A stretch of 64,000 nt of DNA from a bacterium (GTDB lineage: Bacteria; Joyebacterota; Joyebacteria; Joyebacterales; Joyebacteraceae), in assembly GCA_025774245.1 (NCBI GenBank), contig JALGWI010000008.1, positions 2,525 to 66,524 of the forward strand. The letters run 5' to 3'. Position numbers and translations under genes: made by a program. The notes beneath the pieces were generated by a model. The model did not search any database. It saw only the letters and a list, made by a program, of their open reading frames with translations, and was not told where the DNA came from. This document shows, piece after piece, positions 50,167-57,211 of this stretch; the first letter of the stretch is position 1, and every line of letters begins with the position of its first letter.

Positions 50167-50784
50167 ATGAGAACCACGGCATGCGCGATCCTGGCGGTGT
50201 CGGTGCTCCTCCTGGCGGCCGGATTCGCCGGCGCCGACGAGGTGACCGACGCGATCGGTCAGGCGTCCGCCGCGTACTCGGGCGGCGACTACAAGGAAGC
50301 GAGCACGCAGCTCCAGACGGCGCTCATCGGGGTGAACCAGCAGCTGATCGATCTTCTGCTGGAGCAGTTCCCCGATCCGCCTTCCGGATGGACGGCCGAC
50401 GAGCCCGAGAGCATGGACGCGTCGATGATCGGAGCGTCGTTCTTCGCAGGTCTCGTCGTATCGCGCGACTACCACCCGCCGTCCGGGTCGACGGTCGAGC
50501 TCACCGTCGCCGCGAACTCCCCGATGCTCGCGATGCTCCGGAGCTTCATCGGGAACCCGATGCTCGCGGCGATGACCGGGCAGTCCGGCATGAAGAAGAT
50601 CTCGGCCTGCGGCTTCGACGCGATCGAGCAGGCGGACGAGGAGAGCGGGTCTTTCGACCTGCACGTGCTCGCAGGGAACGCGACCCTGGTGAGTTACTCG
50701 GGTCAGACCGCCGACGACATGCCGCACATCCACACGCTGGTCGGCGGCACGGACTGCCAGGGGTTCGTCGACGTCGTGGAGTAG
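50167..50784 (+). CDS. Hypothetical secreted protein
   Basis: Signal peptide MRTTACAILAVSVLLLAAGFAGA. No recognisable domain. Confidence 0.5.
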   Translation: MRTTACAILAVSVLLLAAGFAGADEVTDAIGQASAAYSGGDYKEASTQLQTALIGVNQQLIDLLLEQFPDPPSGWTADEPESMDASMIGASFFAGLVVSRDYHPPSGSTVELTVAANSPMLAMLRSFIGNPMLAAMTGQSGMKKISACGFDAIEQADEESGSFDLHVLAGNATLVSYSGQTADDMPHIHTLVGGTDCQGFVDVVE

Positions 50785-50915: not shown

Positions 50916-51959
50916 TCAGGTTCCTTCCTCTTCCTTCCGCCTGCCGGTCCTCTTCCAGATGAGCCACCCGCCCCAGATCGCGAGGGCGACCGTGCAGGCG
51001 AGCCCCGCCTCGGGCCCGTAGCTTCCCCCCGTCAGCCGTGAGTCCGGGTCGACCTCGACCACGTTCAGCACACCGTAGATGGGAAGCCCGCTCACGGGGA
51101 GCGAGTAGAGATAGCCGAGCGAGAAGTTCCACGCGAAGTGGAAGCCGACGGGCATCCAGAGCGACTGCGTGCGGAAGTAGAGGACGCAGAGGATGACGCC
51201 GATGATCGTCGTGTTGAAGATCCCGAACGCGTCGGCGCCTGGGTTCGCGCCGTGCAGAACCGCGAAGACGATCGACGAGATGATCGTCGCGACGACCTTG
51301 CTCGCGCGCTCGCTCAGCCGCTGAAGGATGTAGCCCCGGAACATCACCTCCTCGTAGAGCCCCACCACGAAGAAGGCGACGATCGCTCCGAGAAGGTACA
51401 GGGCGATCGGCGTTCCCTCCGGCGCCGGGCGCGCGAATCCCTCCACCCGGACCTGATCGATCGCGATCGAGAACGTGAAGATGACCCCGAGGATGAGGAG
51501 CGCGAGCGCGGCGCCCTTCGCGAAGTCTGAAGCCCAGCCCCGCTTGAAGTAGAGCCCGAGGCTCACGAGCGGCTTCCTGTCCACGATCCACATGAAGGCC
51601 CACGTGTAGAGGATCGTGTAGAGCCCCGTGATGATGGCGAGAGGGAAGAGGTACGGAGAGATGTACTCGAGGATCTCCTCGATGTTCATCGTCGGCGTGA
51701 TGGAATCGAGCGGCGTCGAGTCGATGACGCCGAAGCCTATCAGGATCCCGGCGATCATCGCGAAGAAGATCGAGACGACGATGCCGACGACGAAGTAGCC
51801 GACGAGGTAGAGGATGACCTTCCCGTAGGGACCTGGACCGCGTCGCACCGGGGGCGGCATGGGCGTCGCTTCGGGCGGGGCCTCGAGGGTCGCTTCGTGC
51901 TCCTCGGGACCTCCGGTCTCGCGGTAGGTCGGTTCCTCGTCGTGCTCGGGGGAGTTCAT
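50916..51959 (-). CDS. CPBP family intramembrane metalloprotease (CAAX protease-like)
   Basis: EEVMFRGY, FAVLHG and HFAWNF motifs. Multiple transmembrane helices. Acidic N-terminal tail. Confidence 0.75.
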   Translation of the reverse strand: MNSPEHDEEPTYRETGGPEEHEATLEAPPEATPMPPPVRRGPGPYGKVILYLVGYFVVGIVVSIFFAMIAGILIGFGVIDSTPLDSITPTMNIEEILEYISPYLFPLAIITGLYTILYTWAFMWIVDRKPLVSLGLYFKRGWASDFAKGAALALLILGVIFTFSIAIDQVRVEGFARPAPEGTPIALYLLGAIVAFFVVGLYEEVMFRGYILQRLSERASKVVATIISSIVFAVLHGANPGADAFGIFNTTIIGVILCVLYFRTQSLWMPVGFHFAWNFSLGYLYSLPVSGLPIYGVLNVVEVDPDSRLTGGSYGPEAGLACTVALAIWGGWLIWKRTGRRKEEEGT

Positions 51960-52151
51960 GGATGCCTCCGCTCAGGGCCGCGTGGGGGACGCGCTCACCG
52001 TCGACGCAGTGACGGAGAGGCGGCGTCCCGGACGCTCAGATGATAGCCGCGCGGAGGCGATGGCTGCAAGTTCGTTCGGTGAAGTTGGGGACGGTGCGGT
52101 GCGGGCCTGGCAGGCGTCAGGTCGCTGGAGTATCGACCGTGTGGCGGGGTG

Positions 52152-52778
52152 TCATCGCTGCGAACTCTTGAGCTCGCTGAGGCTCGACGCTCCGTCCGGG
52201 AGCGCCGGAGGAGGCCCGGTGTCGTACCACCTGGTGACGTCCCACAGTAGTTCGCCGCTCGAGCTGACGGTGTCCGGGTCGGCCCGGAACCGAAACTCGC
52301 TGTCGCCGACGACGTACCACGCCGGATGGTCGGGATCCTCGAAGACGATCTCGAGATCGACGTCGACGACATAGTGCCACGCGTCATCGGTCGGATCGTA
52401 GGGATCGGGGCCCTCCTGGAACTGGACAGACACCGCCTCAATGTCGAGAGAGATCTCGGCGATGCCACCGTCGGGACCGAACATGTCCTCGTGGATCTCG
52501 CGCTCGGTCTCTCTGTCCCAGCAGGGAGGGAGCGGGTTGTTCGGGTCGTTCTGATCGTAGGAGGGACAGAACAGGAAGTCCTCCGCGAGGCAGTCCATGT
52601 AGGCGTCGCAGTCCATGTTCCTGAAAGCCCGCTCGATCTTGGTGAGGACGTTGTCCGGGGTCGTGCGCTCGGGGTATCCGGTGTCCTCGGTGTCCCCGGG
52701 CCCGCTCGTCGAGCCGCAGCCTGCGACGAGCGTCGCGACGATCGCGATCAGGATCCAGACGGAAACGCGTGTCGTCAC
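52152..52778 (-). CDS. NTF2/SnoaL-like lipoprotein, paralog 1 of a tandem array
   Basis: Lipobox LVAGCGS. Conserved YPERTTPDNVL...MDCDAYMDCLAEDF block. ~75% identical at the N-terminus to the next gene. Confidence 0.6.
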   Translation of the reverse strand: MTTRVSVWILIAIVATLVAGCGSTSGPGDTEDTGYPERTTPDNVLTKIERAFRNMDCDAYMDCLAEDFLFCPSYDQNDPNNPLPPCWDRETEREIHEDMFGPDGGIAEISLDIEAVSVQFQEGPDPYDPTDDAWHYVVDVDLEIVFEDPDHPAWYVVGDSEFRFRADPDTVSSSGELLWDVTRWYDTGPPPALPDGASSLSELKSSQR

Positions 52779-52803
52779 GTGTTGTCCTCCCGGTGGACGG
52801 CCG

Positions 52804-53433
52804 TCACCGGAATGCGGCCTTGAGTTTTCCCCAACTCCACGACTCTACTCTCTCGCCAGCCCAGTAGTCGAGCTCCCTCCACTCTACGATCTCCCAGAGG
52901 TTCTCTCCGCCTGGTCCGACTTGGCTCTCGTCGACCTGGAGCAGGAATCGCTGGTCCCCGTATCCGAGGTAGACGAGGGGGTCATCGGGGATCGCGACGA
53001 AGGCCCGGATGTCTGCCTCCGCGACGTACACCCACCGGCCGTCATTGCTCTCGGGATCGGAACCGGGATCAAACTCGGCAGTCTGCGTCGCCAGGTAGAT
53101 CACGATCCGATTGATCTCCGGCCCTGGCCCAAACATGTTCTCGTGGATCCTGCGCTCGGCTTCCCGATCCCATGACGGAGGAAGAGGATCGACCCAGCCG
53201 AACTGATCTTCCAGAGACGGGATGAAGACGAAGTCCTCGGCGAGGCAGTCCATGTACGCCTCGCAGTCCATGTCCTCGTAGGCCTGCTTGAGCTTGGCGA
53301 GGACGTTGTCCGGGGTCGTGCGCTCGGGGTATCCGGTGTCCTCGGTGTCGCCGGGTCCGCTCGTCGAGCTGCAGCCGGCGACGAGCGTCGCGGCGATCGC
53401 GATCAGTATCCAGACGGGAACGCGTGTCGTCAC
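52804..53433 (-). CDS. NTF2/SnoaL-like lipoprotein, paralog 2
   Basis: Lipobox LVAGCSS. Same conserved blocks. Confidence 0.6.
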   Translation of the reverse strand: MTTRVPVWILIAIAATLVAGCSSTSGPGDTEDTGYPERTTPDNVLAKLKQAYEDMDCEAYMDCLAEDFVFIPSLEDQFGWVDPLPPSWDREAERRIHENMFGPGPEINRIVIYLATQTAEFDPGSDPESNDGRWVYVAEADIRAFVAIPDDPLVYLGYGDQRFLLQVDESQVGPGGENLWEIVEWRELDYWAGERVESWSWGKLKAAFR

Positions 53434-53458
53434 GGGTCGTCCTCCTGGTGGAACAGCG

Positions 53459-54253
53459 TCACCGGTACATGGCCTTGATGCTGCCCCAGGTCGAGTCCTC
53501 TACTCTCTCGCCGGCGCGCTCCTCGACGTCCCACCACTCGACGATCTCCCAGAGGTCCTCGCCGCCCTGTCCGACCTGATCGGGATCGACCTGGAGCAGG
53601 AACCGCTGGTCCGCGGTCGCGAGGTAGATGAGATAATCGTCGGGGAGCGGGATGAGGAGCCTGAGATCGATCGCCTCGACGTAGTCCCACGTGTCGTCGG
53701 CCGTGCTCCCTGGGTCCGCTCCTGGGTCGAACTCGGAGGTCTGCGTCGACAGATCGAGCGTGATGCGAGCGACATCGCTGTCGGGCCCGAACATGTTCTC
53801 GTGGATCGTCCGCTCCTCCTCCTTGTCCCAATCGGGCGGCAGAGGGCTGTTCGGGTCGTTCTGATCGGCCTCAGCTGTGTGGAACACGAAGTCCTCGGCG
53901 AGGCAATCGAGGTACGCGTAGAGGTTCATGTTCTCGTAGGCGGCCGCGAGCCGGGCCAGACAGTTCTCCGGCGTCGTGCGCTCGGGGTACTCGGGCTCCT
54001 CGACACCGATGCGGTGGAACGAGTGCTTGAGTCGTCCCCAGGTGGTCTCCGCCCGTCCGGCGCCGGTGAACGACGGGACGTCGTCCCACTCGGCGATCTC
54101 CCACAGCGTCTCACCCTCGGGGCCTGTGTCGATCGGGTCCTGTTCGATCAGGAGAACGGCGCCGCCCGCGACGGTGTAGGTCAACCCGTCGTCGATCCGA
54201 ACGCTGAGGTCCACGTCCTCGCTGTACTCCCAGGCGACCGTGTCTCCGGGCAC
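53459..54253 (-). CDS. NTF2-like paralog 3 in frame with the C-terminal region of paralog 4. It lacks its own signal peptide and is probably part of a frameshifted tandem-fusion gene.
   Basis: The first ~80 aa align to the C-terminal third of paralogs 1 and 2 (AWEYSEDVDL...LWEIAEWDDV). A second copy starting YPERTTPENCL... then follows without a stop. Confidence 0.45.
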   Translation of the reverse strand: MPGDTVAWEYSEDVDLSVRIDDGLTYTVAGGAVLLIEQDPIDTGPEGETLWEIAEWDDVPSFTGAGRAETTWGRLKHSFHRIGVEEPEYPERTTPENCLARLAAAYENMNLYAYLDCLAEDFVFHTAEADQNDPNSPLPPDWDKEEERTIHENMFGPDSDVARITLDLSTQTSEFDPGADPGSTADDTWDYVEAIDLRLLIPLPDDYLIYLATADQRFLLQVDPDQVGQGGEDLWEIVEWWDVEERAGERVEDSTWGSIKAMYR

Positions 54254-54684
54254 TGCCCCAGTGTCAGGACGATGCTCCTCGCGGCCTCGTCACTCACGAA
54301 CAGGTTCCAGTGGATCGTCTCCTCGACGGCCGCGTTCCAGAAGAGCGGTATGTTCGGATCGCCGGTGCAGTCGTCCTCGTTCGGGAAGAAGAGGAAGTCG
54401 TCCGACAGGCAGTCGAGGTACGCGCCCTGGTCTCTGTTCCCGTATGCGGCGACGAGCTTCTCGATGACGCCCGCTGGGGTGGTCCTCAGGGCGTACTCGA
54501 CGTCACCGTCACAGCCGCACGGTGCAGTCGTCGACGTGCAGGAGCCGAGCAGGAAGACGAGAGGGACGAGCATCGCAAGTGCTGAGCAGGTTCTTCGCAT
54601 GGCGGTCTCCGTCGGCTGGGTGCGATCTCGGGGGTGGGGTCGGTGAGCACGACACATTATCTCACACCTCGGGGCGTTGGTCAA
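54181..54684 (-). CDS. NTF2-like lipoprotein paralog 4 N-terminal part. The reading frame breaks near 54240 (apparent 1-nt frameshift into the 53459..54253 frame).
   Basis: Signal peptide plus lipobox LLGSCTS. Conserved domain up to ...IVLTLGQ, after which translation diverges. The paralog-like continuation is in the adjacent frame. Confidence 0.45.
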   Translation of the reverse strand: MTNAPRCEIMCRAHRPHPRDRTQPTETAMRRTCSALAMLVPLVFLLGSCTSTTAPCGCDGDVEYALRTTPAGVIEKLVAAYGNRDQGAYLDCLSDDFLFFPNEDDCTGDPNIPLFWNAAVEETIHWNLFVSDEAARSIVLTLGQCPETRSPGSTARTWTSAFGSTTG

Positions 54685-55310
54685 ACCGCGGGGCAGGCTC
54701 CCCAGCGTTCACACCACCCCCGCCACAACGGCCCGGGACCGCCTGGAGAGACCCCGCCGCGGCCCCGGGTGTCGACCGGGTTGACACCCGATCGGCCGCT
54801 CCGTCGCGTTTCGCGAGGGGCCCCGCGACCGCGCGTTCCTAACCCCGTGCCGCGCCACAGGTTCCGCCGTTCGTCACGAACGGAGCGGCTCGGGAACCCA
54901 CCTGGCACGCCCCTTGTTATTACAGGGGGGTGAGCGCTTGCGTTCCGCGCGGAACGGGGGAGGAGCTGGGCGGGGCTGGCCCGAAAAGGGGCGGGGCAGT
55001 TCCTGCCCGGCACCTGCCGAAGACCGCGCGGCACGGGGCGTCACGGCACGCCCGGGCGCCGCCCGCACCTCTGCCGTCCCCGCACGCCGCCCTCGAAGTG
55101 CCGCCCGCCGTCGTCCTTCCCGAGAATCGCCTTGCGGACCCATTCCGTGTTGAGTAAACTCTCGCGAGCGACGTCTTTATCTAGCGGACGCCGCTTGCGA
55201 ACGCACGGGGCGGCCGGGCTCTGTCCGGCCGGCCTGCACATCTCCGCACTGCTACCCGGGCACCAAGGCTCCGAGAGGCGCCGAGACCGGCCTCTCTCGA
55301 GGAGGACCCG

Positions 55311-56222
55311 ATGAAGCGTACGATCATCATTCTCGCGGGTATCGCCCTCATGCTTCTTTCCTCCGCGGCCGCTGCCGAGGACGGCACGTCCGGGGCCGCC
55401 TATCTGAAGCTCGGGGCCGGCGCCCGCGCGATCGGGCTGGGGGACGCCTACGTCGCCGTCAGCGGCGACGCCTCATGCGTGTACTGGAATCCGGCGGGGT
55501 TGGCGGGGGTCGAGCACATCGACGTCGAGCTCATGCACAGCGAGTGGTTCCAGGGGATCCGCTACGAGTTCCTCGGCGGGGCGAAGCGGTACGATCACCA
55601 GGCGTTCGGCGGCGCGATCACGGGTCTCTACATGGACGACCTCGAGCGGCGCGAGGGCGCGAGCGCGGAGCCGGACGGTCACTTCGGCGTCTTCGACTTC
55701 TCGCTCACGGGAAGCTACGCGCGCCGGCTCACCGAGCACTTCGACGTCGGCGGTTCGCTCAAGTACCTGCACGAGAAGATCGATCACGAGACCGCGTCGG
55801 GCTTCGCCGTCGACCTCGGCACGATCTACCGCATCCCCGGCGTCGAGGGGCTTGCGGCCGGCATCGTCGTACAGAACCTCGGTCCCCAGATGAGCTTCAT
55901 CAAGGAGAAGTTCAATCTGCCCTTCGCGGTCCGCGCGGGCGTGGCGTTCGCGTTCCCGGCGGAGCCGCTCCACGGCGACTTCCTCCTCACGGGCGACGCC
56001 GTCGTTCCGAACGACGGCGACACGAAGGTGCACTTCGGGATCGAGTACGAATACGCCAAGATCCTCGCGCTGCGATTCGGGTACCGGACGGGGTGGGACA
56101 ATCAGAACGTCTCGCTCGGTCTCGGCGCGAAGGTGAACAGGTTCCGTCTCGACTACGCCTACACGCCGTTCTACTCCGACCTGGGCGACACCCACAGGAT
56201 CTCGCTGGGCTTCACCCTCTAG
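55311..56222 (+). CDS. PorV/FadL-like outer membrane beta-barrel protein (T9SS PorV-like family)
   Basis: Signal peptide. N-terminal YLKLGAGARAIGLGDAYVAVSGDASCVYWNPAGLA signature. C-terminal barrel ending LGFTL. Confidence 0.7.
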   Translation: MKRTIIILAGIALMLLSSAAAAEDGTSGAAYLKLGAGARAIGLGDAYVAVSGDASCVYWNPAGLAGVEHIDVELMHSEWFQGIRYEFLGGAKRYDHQAFGGAITGLYMDDLERREGASAEPDGHFGVFDFSLTGSYARRLTEHFDVGGSLKYLHEKIDHETASGFAVDLGTIYRIPGVEGLAAGIVVQNLGPQMSFIKEKFNLPFAVRAGVAFAFPAEPLHGDFLLTGDAVVPNDGDTKVHFGIEYEYAKILALRFGYRTGWDNQNVSLGLGAKVNRFRLDYAYTPFYSDLGDTHRISLGFTL

Positions 56223-56362: not shown

Positions 56363-57211
56363 TCACAGCACGGCCGCGCTTCGCTCCGCGTCCGACTCGA
56401 CGAGCGAGCCATCCGACCAGCGCAGCATCCGGAAACCGTCGGGCGTGAGTTCCACGACGGAGCGGTTCACCATCCAGTCGCCGACGATCACCGCGGTCCC
56501 GCGCTCGGTCCGCCAGATGAACGGTCGGTGGACGTGGCCGACGATTACGGCGTCGTACCCGTCGGCGAGCTTCCGCTCGAGGAAGTCCCTCATCGGCGGG
56601 ACGGCGTTCTGGATCCTCTCCTCGGTGATCTCGCTCAGCCCCGACGCCCAGCGGGCGAGCGCCGCGCCGATCGTCGGGTGGAGCAGGCGGAACGCGGCGA
56701 TCGCGGGGCGGCTCCTGATCACGGCCTTGAGCATCCGGTAGCCCCAGTCGCCGGCGGGAAGCCCGTCGCCGTGTGCGACGAAGAGCTTCTTCCCGAAGTG
56801 CGTCGGGTGGGCGGTGTTCCGGACGACGATGGCTCCGGCCATCGCCTCGAGCTTCTCGCCGGCCCAGTAGTCGTGGTTGCCGCCGAGGAACCGGATCTCG
56901 GTCCCCGCGCGCGAGAGTTCCGAGAGCGCCTTCAGCACCTCGAAGTGCTCGGTCGGTGTGACGGTGGGATACTCGAACCAGAAGTCGAACAGGTCGCCGA
57001 CGAGGTAGAGAGACGAGGCGCGACCCCGGAGGTGGGAGAGGAGCGCGAGGAGGTCGCGGAGCTTCTCCGACTCGAGTGACGGAGGCTCACCGCCGAGATG
57101 GGCGTCGGCTATGAAATAGACGATCCCGCCGGCGGATCCATCGGCCGGGGGACCCGCGCCGGGGACGGCGTCGGTGGCTCGGGGTTTCAGCTCGGTTGCC
57201 ATCGCGGCCAC
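56363..57211 (-). CDS. Calcineurin-like metallophosphoesterase, UDP-2,3-diacylglucosamine hydrolase (LpxH)-like
   Basis: YFIADAHLG, GDLFDFW, GNHD and VHGHVH metallophosphatase motifs. Confidence 0.7.
   Translation of the reverse strand: MAAMATELKPRATDAVPGAGPPADGSAGGIVYFIADAHLGGEPPSLESEKLRDLLALLSHLRGRASSLYLVGDLFDFWFEYPTVTPTEHFEVLKALSELSRAGTEIRFLGGNHDYWAGEKLEAMAGAIVVRNTAHPTHFGKKLFVAHGDGLPAGDWGYRMLKAVIRSRPAIAAFRLLHPTIGAALARWASGLSEITEERIQNAVPPMRDFLERKLADGYDAVIVGHVHRPFIWRTERGTAVIVGDWMVNRSVVELTPDGFRMLRWSDGSLVESDAERSAAVL

Follow-up and report, generated by a model that had tools for sequence, protein, structure and literature searches.

Proteins with an NTF2-like fold include the SnoaL, DUF4440 and ketosteroid-isomerase-like proteins (3rob, 3b8l, 3ef8, 3fsd), limonene epoxide hydrolase and scytalone dehydratase. 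MlaC has an NTF2-like fold as well, with a pocket that holds lipid tails, and a study of the periplasmic phospholipid-binding protein Ttg2D reportedly mentions such folds. Tandem repeats of NTF2-like domains are found in iota-carbonic anhydrase (7c5x) and the MonBI-MonBII pair (9kw6). A literature search returned no paper on NTF2-like lipoproteins in a setting comparable to the one described here, and the main text of the Joyebacterota paper mentions neither Eisenbacteria nor T9SS nor lipoproteins.

The array of lipoprotein genes analyzed in this study shares the fold of these proteins at a sequence identity of 5-17%. Its domain is longer (about 170 residues), is predicted to be exported as a lipoprotein and carries conserved motifs of its own. 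Diderm bacteria employ the phospholipid carriers MlaC and Ttg2D outside the cytoplasm. The array lipoproteins would act there as well, and by analogy these carriers are plausible functional counterparts. No sequence similarity links the array to iota-carbonic anhydrase or MonBI-MonBII; the proteins of the present family carry one to three domains behind a lipoprotein signal peptide.

We analyzed a stretch of 64,000 nucleotides (the window) from a sediment bacterium of the Joyebacterota/Eisenbacteria. Open reading frames, three-frame translation and alignment identified four homologous domains in three genes on the minus strand, and no further copy of the domain was found in the window. A reading from the sequence only had counted four consecutive genes; the four domains were retained, the number of genes was reduced to three. 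Their order on the strand is the two-domain gene, then the single-domain genes P2 and P1 (Table 1). Taken as a whole, the locus is in our view quite probably a three-gene, four-domain lipoprotein cluster within a conserved cassette, in which the fusion gene has been rendered null by a deletion of 31 bp.

Table 1. Features of the lipoprotein array and its neighbours (positions in the window)
Feature	Position	Strand	Description	Basis or remark
P1	52152..52778	-	single-domain NTF2-like lipoprotein, 208 aa, GTG start, lipobox VAGC	ORF and alignment
P2	52804..53433	-	single-domain NTF2-like lipoprotein, 209 aa, GTG start, GGAGGA ribosome-binding site, lipobox VAGC	
Two-domain gene	53459..54600	-	two-domain NTF2-like lipoprotein, 390 aa when intact; split here	three-frame translation and intact orthologues
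Domain 1 (paralog 4 of the sequence-only reading)	54014..54600	-	signal peptide, lipobox LGSC, less conserved NTF2-like domain	
Domain 2 (paralog 3 of the sequence-only reading)	53459..54013	-	canonical NTF2-like domain without signal peptide	
Promoter match	54656..54684	-	sigma-70-like: TTGACC, 17 nt, TG-GATAAT	about 56 nt upstream of ATG 54600
Deletion junction	54259..54260		31 bp of sibling contigs absent here	no microhomology at junction
Outer-membrane barrel	55311..56222	+	PorV/PorQ-family beta-barrel, 303 aa, divergent to array	NF033709, 213 bits, cut-off 90
CPBP protease	50916..51959	-	Rce1-like/CPBP intramembrane protease, 347 aa, 192 nt downstream of P1	PF02517, E = 7e-25

The two-domain gene likely starts at ATG 54600 rather than at TTG 54684. 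The promoter match upstream of it, a match to consensus only, was found once compared to 0.1 times expected from shuffles.

Structure prediction and fold search agreed on an NTF2-like fold, as the first reading of the sequence had proposed: in the predicted alpha+beta cone, three helices lie on a curved antiparallel sheet that can be superposed on solved structures. Of the highest-ranking structural neighbours, most are uncharacterised as well. At the sequence level the proteins stand apart. Searches of Pfam, NCBIfam and PDB sequences gave no significant match for P1, P2 or the fusion protein, and a profile search of PDB sequences found nothing. The match of P1 to DUF4440 (E = 0.033, 15.1 bits) stayed below the cut-off of 25.2 bits, and SnoaL_3 was matched by 1 of 65 members (E = 0.0077). 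Membership in the SnoaL-like or DUF4440 families of Pfam was therefore rejected, as the gathering threshold was not reached. The domains represent an uncatalogued family of NTF2-fold lipoproteins with about 2,000 cluster representatives in one-, two- and three-domain forms, largely confined to the candidate phylum Ca. Eisenbacteria/Joyebacterota.

The other domains show 35-52% identity to P1 in the four-domain alignment. The YPERTTP and Y(L/M)DCLAEDF blocks noticed earlier are indeed conserved in all four copies, and across the family the motifs read YPxRTSP, YLDCLAEDF, IHENMF and LWEI, followed by a C-terminal [ST]WGxIKxx[YF]R helix. A set of polar residues is strictly conserved (Arg38, Tyr52, Tyr60, Asp62, Cys63, Glu93, His97 and Asp168). 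The C-terminal helix flanks every domain, and in one subgroup it is present at the mature N-terminus as well. It also terminates an unrelated beta-helix protein; this is the single case outside the family in 435 kb searched, too few to speak for portability of the motif.

The lipoprotein nature of the array was borne out by signal peptides in P1, P2 and domain 1, in each of which a charged n-region and a hydrophobic core precede a lipobox (pattern match) with its cysteine at position 21. The lipobox had been ascribed to all four copies. This holds for three of them; domain 2 lacks a signal peptide, as had been recognized as well. A separate start with a signal peptide of its own was considered for domain 2 and dropped; three-frame translation showed that the C-terminal part of domain 1 reads into domain 2 in one frame. 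All four domains are predicted to be exported as lipoproteins when the fusion gene is intact.

Comparison with relatives indicates that the two-domain fusion is genuine and old, which was one of the options left by the first reading. The single-frame layout is present in sibling contigs and in 20 homologues of 367-397 aa, which show 35-84% identity and cover at least 95% of the two-domain query. A lipobox is present in 19 of these 20 proteins and in most single-domain homologues when a pattern somewhat looser than [LVI][ASTVI][GAS]C is applied. Among 2056 family representatives, both two- and three-domain forms occur. The domains of the fusion are joined by a linker of about 10 residues and differ in conservation, with 22 columns conserved at 90% or more in domain 1 compared to 44 in domain 2.

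In the window this gene is broken. The sequence-only reading had located a loss of frame near 54240 beside a G-run and suggested a correction by one nucleotide. The break itself was found; its site and nature were different. Between 54260 and 54259 the window lacks 31 bp (CACGCAGGTGGGGCCACCGCTCCCGATCGAG) that are present in the sibling contigs, so that a homopolymer error at the G-run was ruled out and no -1/+1 correction applies; in siblings and homologues the gene is in frame. The flanks of the junction are 100% identical to the siblings L001, L002/L006, L005/L050 and L052, and these four contigs are otherwise 99.9-100% identical to the window. Among the siblings compared, the deletion was seen in the contig of the window alone. 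Scans of a collection of metagenome contigs for further alleles, by a pattern that fits both alleles and by a 34-mer from the left flank, gave no hit, in a collection that evidently does not include these samples.

The lost segment encodes ten conserved residues (TQVGPPLPIE) of a beta-strand of domain 1. As a result translation stops after 139 residues (54181-54600), while the remainder (53459-54253) lies in another frame and has no signal peptide. The window allele of the fusion gene is thus null, with no export signal remaining for domain 2. The public gene calls for this 87.7-kb contig, which was traced by cluster membership, give proteins of 139 aa and 251 aa; these are better taken together, as a single disrupted gene whose intact product is a two-domain lipoprotein of 390 aa. 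Searches for exact copies of the truncated products of 139, 264 and 251 aa gave no record. Gene calls of four assemblies include the intact 390-aa protein, with orthologues in sibling contigs (P0001, P0088 and P0089). A decaying pseudogene, as had also been proposed, would describe no more than a single allele in one of the genes: P1 and P2 are unbroken here and their proteins are identical in sibling contigs.

Programmed slippage at this site had also been suggested. If the ribosome were programmed to shift by -1, or transcription slipped, at the CUG-GGG-C run, a full two-domain protein would result: the tRNA-Gly that decodes GGG could pair anew with G-GGG in the -1 frame, and the product deduced from the sequence would lead through ...LTLGAVPGD... 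into domain 2. However, this product would still lack the ten core residues, the canonical slippery heptamer is absent and an Rfam search of 51900-55400 detected no element. As one frame encodes the protein in the sibling contigs and in all 20 homologues, and the lesion is a deletion, we rejected programmed frameshifting and regard it as next to impossible.

An artefact of assembly or consensus in this one metagenome contig, with an intact 390-aa gene in the organism, deserves more weight, and we treat it as a tentative but serious alternative. The intact sequence is present in four other assemblies of the same near-clonal population, and the family to which the gene belongs is repeated locally, at about 76% DNA identity. 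Moreover, the short siblings L002, L051 and L052 end within the array, which indicates that assemblers struggle in this region. On the other hand, the deleted segment is part of domain 1, which has no close paralogue at the DNA level, and neither a repeat nor microhomology was found at the junction. A chimeric join between paralogues was discarded as the cause, since switching between them yields no internal loss of 31 bp or 100 bp. The identical contig is on record at both NCBI and JGI.

The second of these lengths refers to a fifth sibling contig (L051; JGI sample 3300033144), in which a separate frameshifting deletion of 100 bp affects the same gene (window 53876-53975). Compared to L005, the window differs over 20.5 kb by only 2 SNPs and the 31-bp indel. 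Another sample thus has a frameshifting deletion of its own in this gene, and no other indel was found in 20 kb of flanks. On these grounds we consider a real variant in the sampled population more likely than an assembly error, although the clustering of variants in the fusion gene comprises few events and is partly biased, the gene having been examined because of the 31-bp lesion.

The array forms the variable middle of a cassette that is conserved across Ca. Eisenbacteria/Joyebacterota and consists of an LpxH-like gene, a PorV/PorQ-family barrel, one to four NTF2 domains (the range of copy number across genomes) and a CPBP protease. The PorV-like outer-membrane protein noted beside the array was confirmed at the level of the family only, as its scores are below the equivalog cut-offs for PorV (94.7 compared to 250), PorQ (106.8 compared to 220) and PorV2 (93.6 compared to 325). 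Barrel and array are adjacent in L007, L015, L017, L018, L021, L027 and L029 as well, and in the first six of these loci the CPBP protease is located downstream.

Both neighbours recall known export systems. The barrel is of the same family as PorV and PorQ of the T9SS, above the family cut-off. The protease is weakly similar to those of the CPBP sorting systems (myxosortase/MYXO-CTERM, MrtS/Synerg-CTERM and MrtJ/JDVT-CTERM), with at most 56 bits and below every cut-off of the sorting-type models. Like the substrates of the latter systems, the array lipoproteins end in a conserved short motif, but the tag of a transmembrane segment plus basic residues is lacking. A sorting tag of the CPBP type was rejected, as the proteins end in ...[ST]WGxIKxx[YF]R with no hydrophobic helix. 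T9SS cargo, which carries a C-terminal sorting domain of about 70-100 residues (type A or type B), was rejected as well: Pfam and NCBIfam searches gave no domain in P1, P2 or the fusion, and the NTF2 domain leaves no more than about 20 residues at the end of the chain.

The gene order shared by the window and the syntenic locus L007 covers more genes than the three linked ones, namely those for the LpxH-like protein, HtrA, sigma-70, an M16 peptidase, a protein of 205 aa (for which Pfam, NCBIfam and PDB sequences gave no match), YjbQ and a P-type ATPase. In addition, the barrel gene is transcribed divergently, with about 700 nt in between. Adjacency might accordingly be inherited synteny only, with lipoproteins that act alone, for example as a periplasmic small-molecule enzyme. 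We regard this as rather doubtful. The three-gene core is retained at 35-45% protein identity in at least nine species-level genomes, and a second, unrelated conserved locus pairs members of the family, in tight order on the same strand, with a large protein of 647-746 aa. This protein begins with a signal peptide and ends in an aromatic residue, features that make it a putative outer-membrane barrel; searches of Pfam, NCBIfam and PDB gave no match for it.

Based on the modelled fold, the lipoproteins may be described as NTF2 cones anchored in the envelope, in which the conserved polar set would form a ligand-binding or catalytic pocket. The strong conservation of core residues, polar ones included, suggests a common ligand or reaction. 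The lipoproteins probably cooperate with the neighbouring barrel of the outer membrane, and their target would be a hydrophobic molecule or one that derives from the envelope. In the two-domain protein, activity would reside in the canonical C-terminal domain, with the relaxed N-terminal domain in an accessory role.

The same conservation is at odds with a role of the array as periplasmic immunity proteins of a polymorphic-toxin system, in which copies would be gained and lost in an arms race, since recognition of diversifying toxins would leave a different pattern. NTF2-like immunity families exist, and CPBP/Abi proteases, a class that adjoins the array, have been linked to bacteriocin self-immunity. 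Tandem paralogues with divergent C-terminal halves and a copy number of 1 to 4 between genomes would fit as well. However, no toxin, secretion-system or Rhs/CdiA-like gene was found nearby in any of nine loci, and throughout the phylum the cassette occupies the same chromosomal site, amid housekeeping genes of the envelope. We therefore consider immunity very unlikely.

A wider reading, which we hold to be improbable, would make the cassette an undescribed outer-membrane module of the Eisenbacteria/Joyebacterota, with the [ST]WGxIKxx[YF]R helix as a portable tag read by barrel or protease and the two deletions as the result of selection to lose an exposed component, such as a phage receptor. 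In any case, the cassette offers a concrete entry to the envelope biology of an uncultured lineage.

The history of the array is best seen in P1 and P2. In a neighbour-joining tree without bootstrap, domain 2 groups with both genes, and the syntenic locus L007 contains the fusion gene alone, without P1 and P2. By these comparisons, P1 and P2 appear to be lineage-specific duplicates of domain 2. Their 5' near-identity followed by divergence, as described from the sequence, was confirmed: over codons 1-45, 95% of all nucleotides and 91% of third positions are identical, compared to 43-51% of third positions over codons 71-210. The interpretation of this pattern as a recent duplication with subsequent diversification was not upheld. 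We prefer an older duplication with recent homogenisation of the 5' ends, as synonymous sites and 45 nt of non-coding DNA upstream are near-identical, whereas sites further downstream are saturated. Most likely the 5' ends, including upstream region and signal peptide, were homogenised later by gene conversion.

While no general concept is changed by this locus, it is a small and clear case of gene birth and death, with a copy number of 1-4 domains, homogenised 5' ends and two inactivating deletions in near-identical populations. Of the copies, P1 has diverged most: its branch in the domain tree is long, and the WGxIK motif at its C-terminus has decayed to SSLSELKSSQR.

The minus strand of 52152-54684 contained three ORF units, as seen by ORF and frame inspection. 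Two of them, P1 and P2, are single-domain lipoprotein genes, and the third is spread over two frames. Its frame B starts with the C-terminal half of a P1/P2-like domain (domain 1) and passes a linker of approximately 10 residues (...WGRLKHSFH-RIGVEEPE-YPERTTP...). One further complete domain follows (domain 2), for which no start with a signal peptide of its own was found. When the four domains were aligned, identity to P1 was 35-52% and 37 positions were invariant, among them those of the YPxRTTP, YLDCLxxDF, IH and LWE blocks. The N-termini of P1, P2 and domain 1 were charged and led into a hydrophobic core and a lipobox (VAGC, VAGC and LGSC, respectively) with the Cys at position 21. By tblastn with family members no further copy was detected in the 64-kb window. 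These data confirmed the array of four lipoprotein paralogs described in the sequence-only reading. Additionally, ATG 54600 was preceded at 56 nt by a sigma-70-like promoter match, the three genes contained no predicted intrinsic terminator, and P2 and P1 each start 25 nt past the preceding stop with a GGAGGA site. This arrangement is consistent with a single transcript.

Features of the array, of the surrounding cassette and of related loci (L, contigs or loci compared with the window; P0xxx, individual homologous proteins)
Feature	Position	Strand	Description
P1	52152-52778	minus	ORF, 208 aa
P1, C-terminal end	52152-52220	minus	...SSLSELKSSQR in place of conserved ...SWGxIKAxYR; LWDV in place of LWEI
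P2	52804-53433	minus	ORF, 209 aa
Third unit, frame A	ATG 54600 to stop 54181	minus	139 aa, begins MRRTCS...IVLTLGQCPETRS...
Third unit, frame B	open from ~54290 to stop 53459	minus	frame translation
31-bp deletion	between 54260 and 54259		domain 1
100-bp deletion of L051	53876-53975		domain 2
Cassette position 1	56363-57211	minus	LpxH-like calcineurin-like phosphoesterase
Cassette position 2	55311-56222	plus	PorV/PorQ-family outer-membrane protein, divergently transcribed; NF033709, 189-213 bits vs cut-off 90
Cassette position 3			NTF2-like gene or genes
Cassette position 4	50916-51959	minus	Rce1-like/CPBP intramembrane protease, same strand as NTF2-like genes
Cassette position 5	50167-50784	plus	conserved secreted protein, ~205 aa, opposite strand
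Middle, one domain	L017
Middle, two single genes	L015, L018
Middle, one fusion	L007
Middle, fusion + single	L027
Middle, single + fusion	L029-L031		L030 and L031 are short contigs limited to the genes themselves
Middle, single + fusion + single	L021, L026
Middle, fusion + two singles	window
Conserved spacer block	54900-55200, core 54962-54995; L007 7641-7664; L016 3653-3676
[ST]WGxIKxx[YF]R	53462-53491, 52807-52836, 54014-54043; L008 12181-12210		also in P0041, P0046, P0031, P0082, P0035
Second locus	L009 5254-8660		same layout in L008, L010, L033, L039 and others

When P2 and P1 were looked up by exact sequence, identical proteins turned up on contigs of other assemblies, in which the gene upstream of P2 was called as one 390-aa product. 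Searching with this intact protein retrieved approximately 20 proteins of 367-397 aa (coverage at least 95%, identity 35-84%) as well as many single-domain proteins of 210-250 aa. In the alignment, all fusion homologues had two domains joined by a short linker behind a single lipoprotein signal peptide. Judged from these sequences, the two-domain fusion, one of the options raised for the frameshifted gene, is native and old. Within it, 44 columns of domain 2 were conserved at ≥90% vs 22 of domain 1, and the Arg, Asp-Cys, Trp, Glu and His positions, invariant or almost invariant among single-domain members, are retained in domain 2.

DNA alignment against the sibling contigs showed that the window lacks 31 bp (CACGCAGGTGGGGCCACCGCTCCCGATCGAG) with flanks 100% identical. 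The lesion is therefore not the one-base slip at a G-run that had been suspected. No repeat or microhomology was present at the junction. The intact reading is ...IVLTL-TQVGPPLPIE-GAVPGDTVAWEY..., so that ten residues are lost and the frame is shifted; in the AlphaFold2 model these residues (115-124) fall within the first long strand that domain 1 forms. According to cluster membership, the window's own contig (87,713 bp, in NCBI and JGI) was annotated with fragments of 139 aa and 251 aa, and the 390-aa form was found on contigs of 42,330, 15,250, 6,212 and 3,541 bp from other samples. Over the 20.5 kb shared with the 42-kb contig, two SNPs and the 31-bp indel were the only differences. Programmed slippage, also considered in the sequence-only reading, was excluded in practice, as the relatives encode the protein in one frame and, even after slippage, the product would be without the conserved strand.

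A second lesion was found in L051 (JGI 3300033144, Ga0366838_1081849). This contig keeps the 31 bp and has an independent, frameshifting 100-bp deletion in domain 2 of the same fusion gene, which takes out TTPEN...YLDCLAEDFVFHT and has at most 1 base of microhomology at its junction. Another sample carried the substitution D130Y, six codons away from where the 31 bp are missing in the window. The metagenome collection, scanned for further alleles, gave no match. In total, six assemblies of an almost clonal population carried the fusion gene, intact in four and broken in two, differently in each. Both indels lie within one gene of 1.17 kb; this clustering is suggestive only, since numbers are small and it was the first lesion that led us to the gene.

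The gap in the window could possibly have arisen during assembly. However, no close paralogue of domain 1 exists at DNA level, neither deletion can result from a switch between paralogues, and the flanks are free of any other indel. On these grounds the 31-bp deletion is probably a real variant of the population. What appeared as a frameshift is a deletion of an ordinary kind in this allele, or might be artefactual. Translation of the window allele would stop at 54181, giving a 139-aa product without most of the sheet and leaving domain 2 without an export signal. A real deletion would make the fusion gene a null, with P2 and P1 as the only genes left.

The NTF2 fold presumed for these proteins was supported by structure prediction. 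AlphaFold2 models built on family alignments were confident for P2 (pLDDT 87.7, pTM 0.80) and for the fusion (pLDDT 84.4, pTM 0.70), and in each domain three helices preceded long, curved strands, with a short helix at the C-terminus. All listed Foldseek matches in the PDB were NTF2-like proteins or designs on that fold (E 1e-5 to 1e-7). In Pfam, P1 reached DUF4440 only at a non-significant E of 0.033 and one of 65 members touched SnoaL_3, again not significantly; NCBIfam had no match for the lipoproteins, nor had a profile search of PDB sequences with the family. According to the models, the domain thus belongs to the well-known NTF2-like fold, yet to no curated sequence family, and is an uncatalogued family. 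Two further candidates were rejected: T9SS cargo, as a C-terminal sorting domain is lacking, and a CPBP-type sorting tag at the lipoprotein terminus, as there is no transmembrane segment.

An exhaustive search with a family profile, as envisaged in the sequence-only reading, gave 2056 cluster representatives at E ≤1e-3 (703 at ≤1e-10), with one-, two- and three-domain architectures. A few members (P0048, P0064) carried an N-terminal Calx-beta domain, and P0121 and P0132 (587-631 aa) three tandem NTF2-like domains. The family as a whole is therefore more variable in domain number and fusions than the window.

In a neighbour-joining tree of 65 domains, without bootstrap, P1, P2 and domain 2 of the window grouped together beside domain 2 of the L007 fusion, and domain 1 grouped with L007 domain 1. 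L007 is the closest syntenic relative outside the window's population (48% protein identity) and has the fusion gene alone between barrel and protease. Most simply, P1 and P2 are lineage-specific copies of domain 2 that gained a signal peptide. The near-identity of their 5' parts was confirmed: 45 nt upstream and codons 1-45 were 95% identical (third positions 91%). From codon 71, only 43-51% of third positions were identical and half of the conserved residues used different codons. The sharp boundary points to a recent homogenisation of the 5' segment rather than to the uniform recent duplication with diversification proposed before. P1 forms the longest branch of the tree and has lost the C-terminal WGxIK motif; it may be diverging in function or decaying. 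The identical P1 protein was called in the two sibling contigs that the look-up showed.

The motif [ST]WGxIKxx[YF]R closes every domain. In one subgroup it is also found at the mature N-terminus, directly after a type I signal peptide. An unrelated beta-helix protein of a Joyebacterota MAG ends exactly in the motif (...VTWSMLKAMYR); within the 435 kb searched, this was the single instance beyond the family, too few to conclude on portability.

The gene order of the cassette was identical in all nine array-type loci examined (window, L007, L015, L017, L018, L021, L026, L027 and L029). Family assignments were run on most loci; L026, and the downstream gene of L029, were placed by shared C-terminal sequences. 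The neighbouring barrel, previously called PorV-like, scored above the NF033709 cut-off and is by this match PorV/PorQ at family level only. The variable part is the NTF2-domain middle. Conservation of the cassette, variation in domain number and the two independent disruptions merit mention, but a specialist would not find them surprising.

The phosphoesterase matched LpxH (lipid A synthesis) over the full length with 98 bits vs an equivalog cut-off of 134, and it adjoins the PorV/PorQ-like gene also in L021 and L027. The 205-aa protein has a signal peptide, ends in ...TDCQGFVDVVE and matched no family; it lies beyond the CPBP protease in all array-type loci, with C-termini ...ATDCKTIVGIVE. 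The spacer of ~700 nt between the PorV/PorQ-like gene and the lipoprotein operon contains blocks identical in three species-level genomes, one being a run of ~45 nt around CCCGCCCCTTTTCGGGCCAGCCCCGCCCAGCTCC, although the flanking proteins are only ~48% identical. An extended hairpin was predicted on either strand with a few one-sided changes, three sequences being too few for covariation. No Rfam family matched the block, which might act as a leader, as a small RNA or as the binding site of a regulator.

At a second conserved locus, a canonical single-domain member follows a 647-746-aa protein and a divergent NTF2 paralogue in tight same-strand order. The large protein carries a signal peptide, ends in an aromatic residue (...RTFF or ...SRVF) and had no match in Pfam, NCBIfam or PDB; it is read as a putative outer-membrane barrel. 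Beyond the canonical member, L008, L009 and L010 continue with a divergent polysaccharide deacetylase, PdxJ and SecDF. The cassette and this second locus are unrelated, and in both of them the family has the gene of a known or putative outer-membrane protein as its neighbour.

From their N-termini, the lipoproteins are probably exported and lipid-anchored; the Calx-beta fusions agree with an extracytoplasmic location. Arg38, Tyr52, Tyr60, Asp62, Cys63, Glu93, His97, Asp168, Glu181 and Lys205 are strictly conserved at an average column identity of 35%, which speaks for a defined pocket and against a role in structure alone. On helix 3, a single turn separates Glu93 from His97, with Met100 and Phe101 next to them; Asp62 and Cys63 are placed where strand 1 begins. 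Enzymes and binders with the NTF2-like fold have their pocket between these helices and the sheet. Our best guess on this basis is a putative ligand-binding or catalytic cone for a hydrophobic or envelope-derived molecule, which would work with the neighbouring FadL-like PorV/PorQ barrel. In the fusion, a relaxed N-terminal domain would accompany the canonical C-terminal domain.

Scanning one genome per species yielded 39 loci, nearly all in MAGs labelled Candidatus Eisenbacteria or in unclassified 'bacterium' MAGs, the latter from Guaymas Basin, Bohai Sea and cold-seep sediments; a few weak matches fell in Gemmatimonadetes and Fermentibacteraceae. The supplement of Gong et al. 2022 (PMC9727166) lists four of those MAGs as Candidatus Joyebacterota, and GTDB has them as Eisenbacteria or unplaced. 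The sibling assembly prefixes JALGWG and JALGVS are adjacent to the prefixes of these MAGs (JALGVN, JALGVU, JALGZG and JALGZK), from which we infer the same submission.
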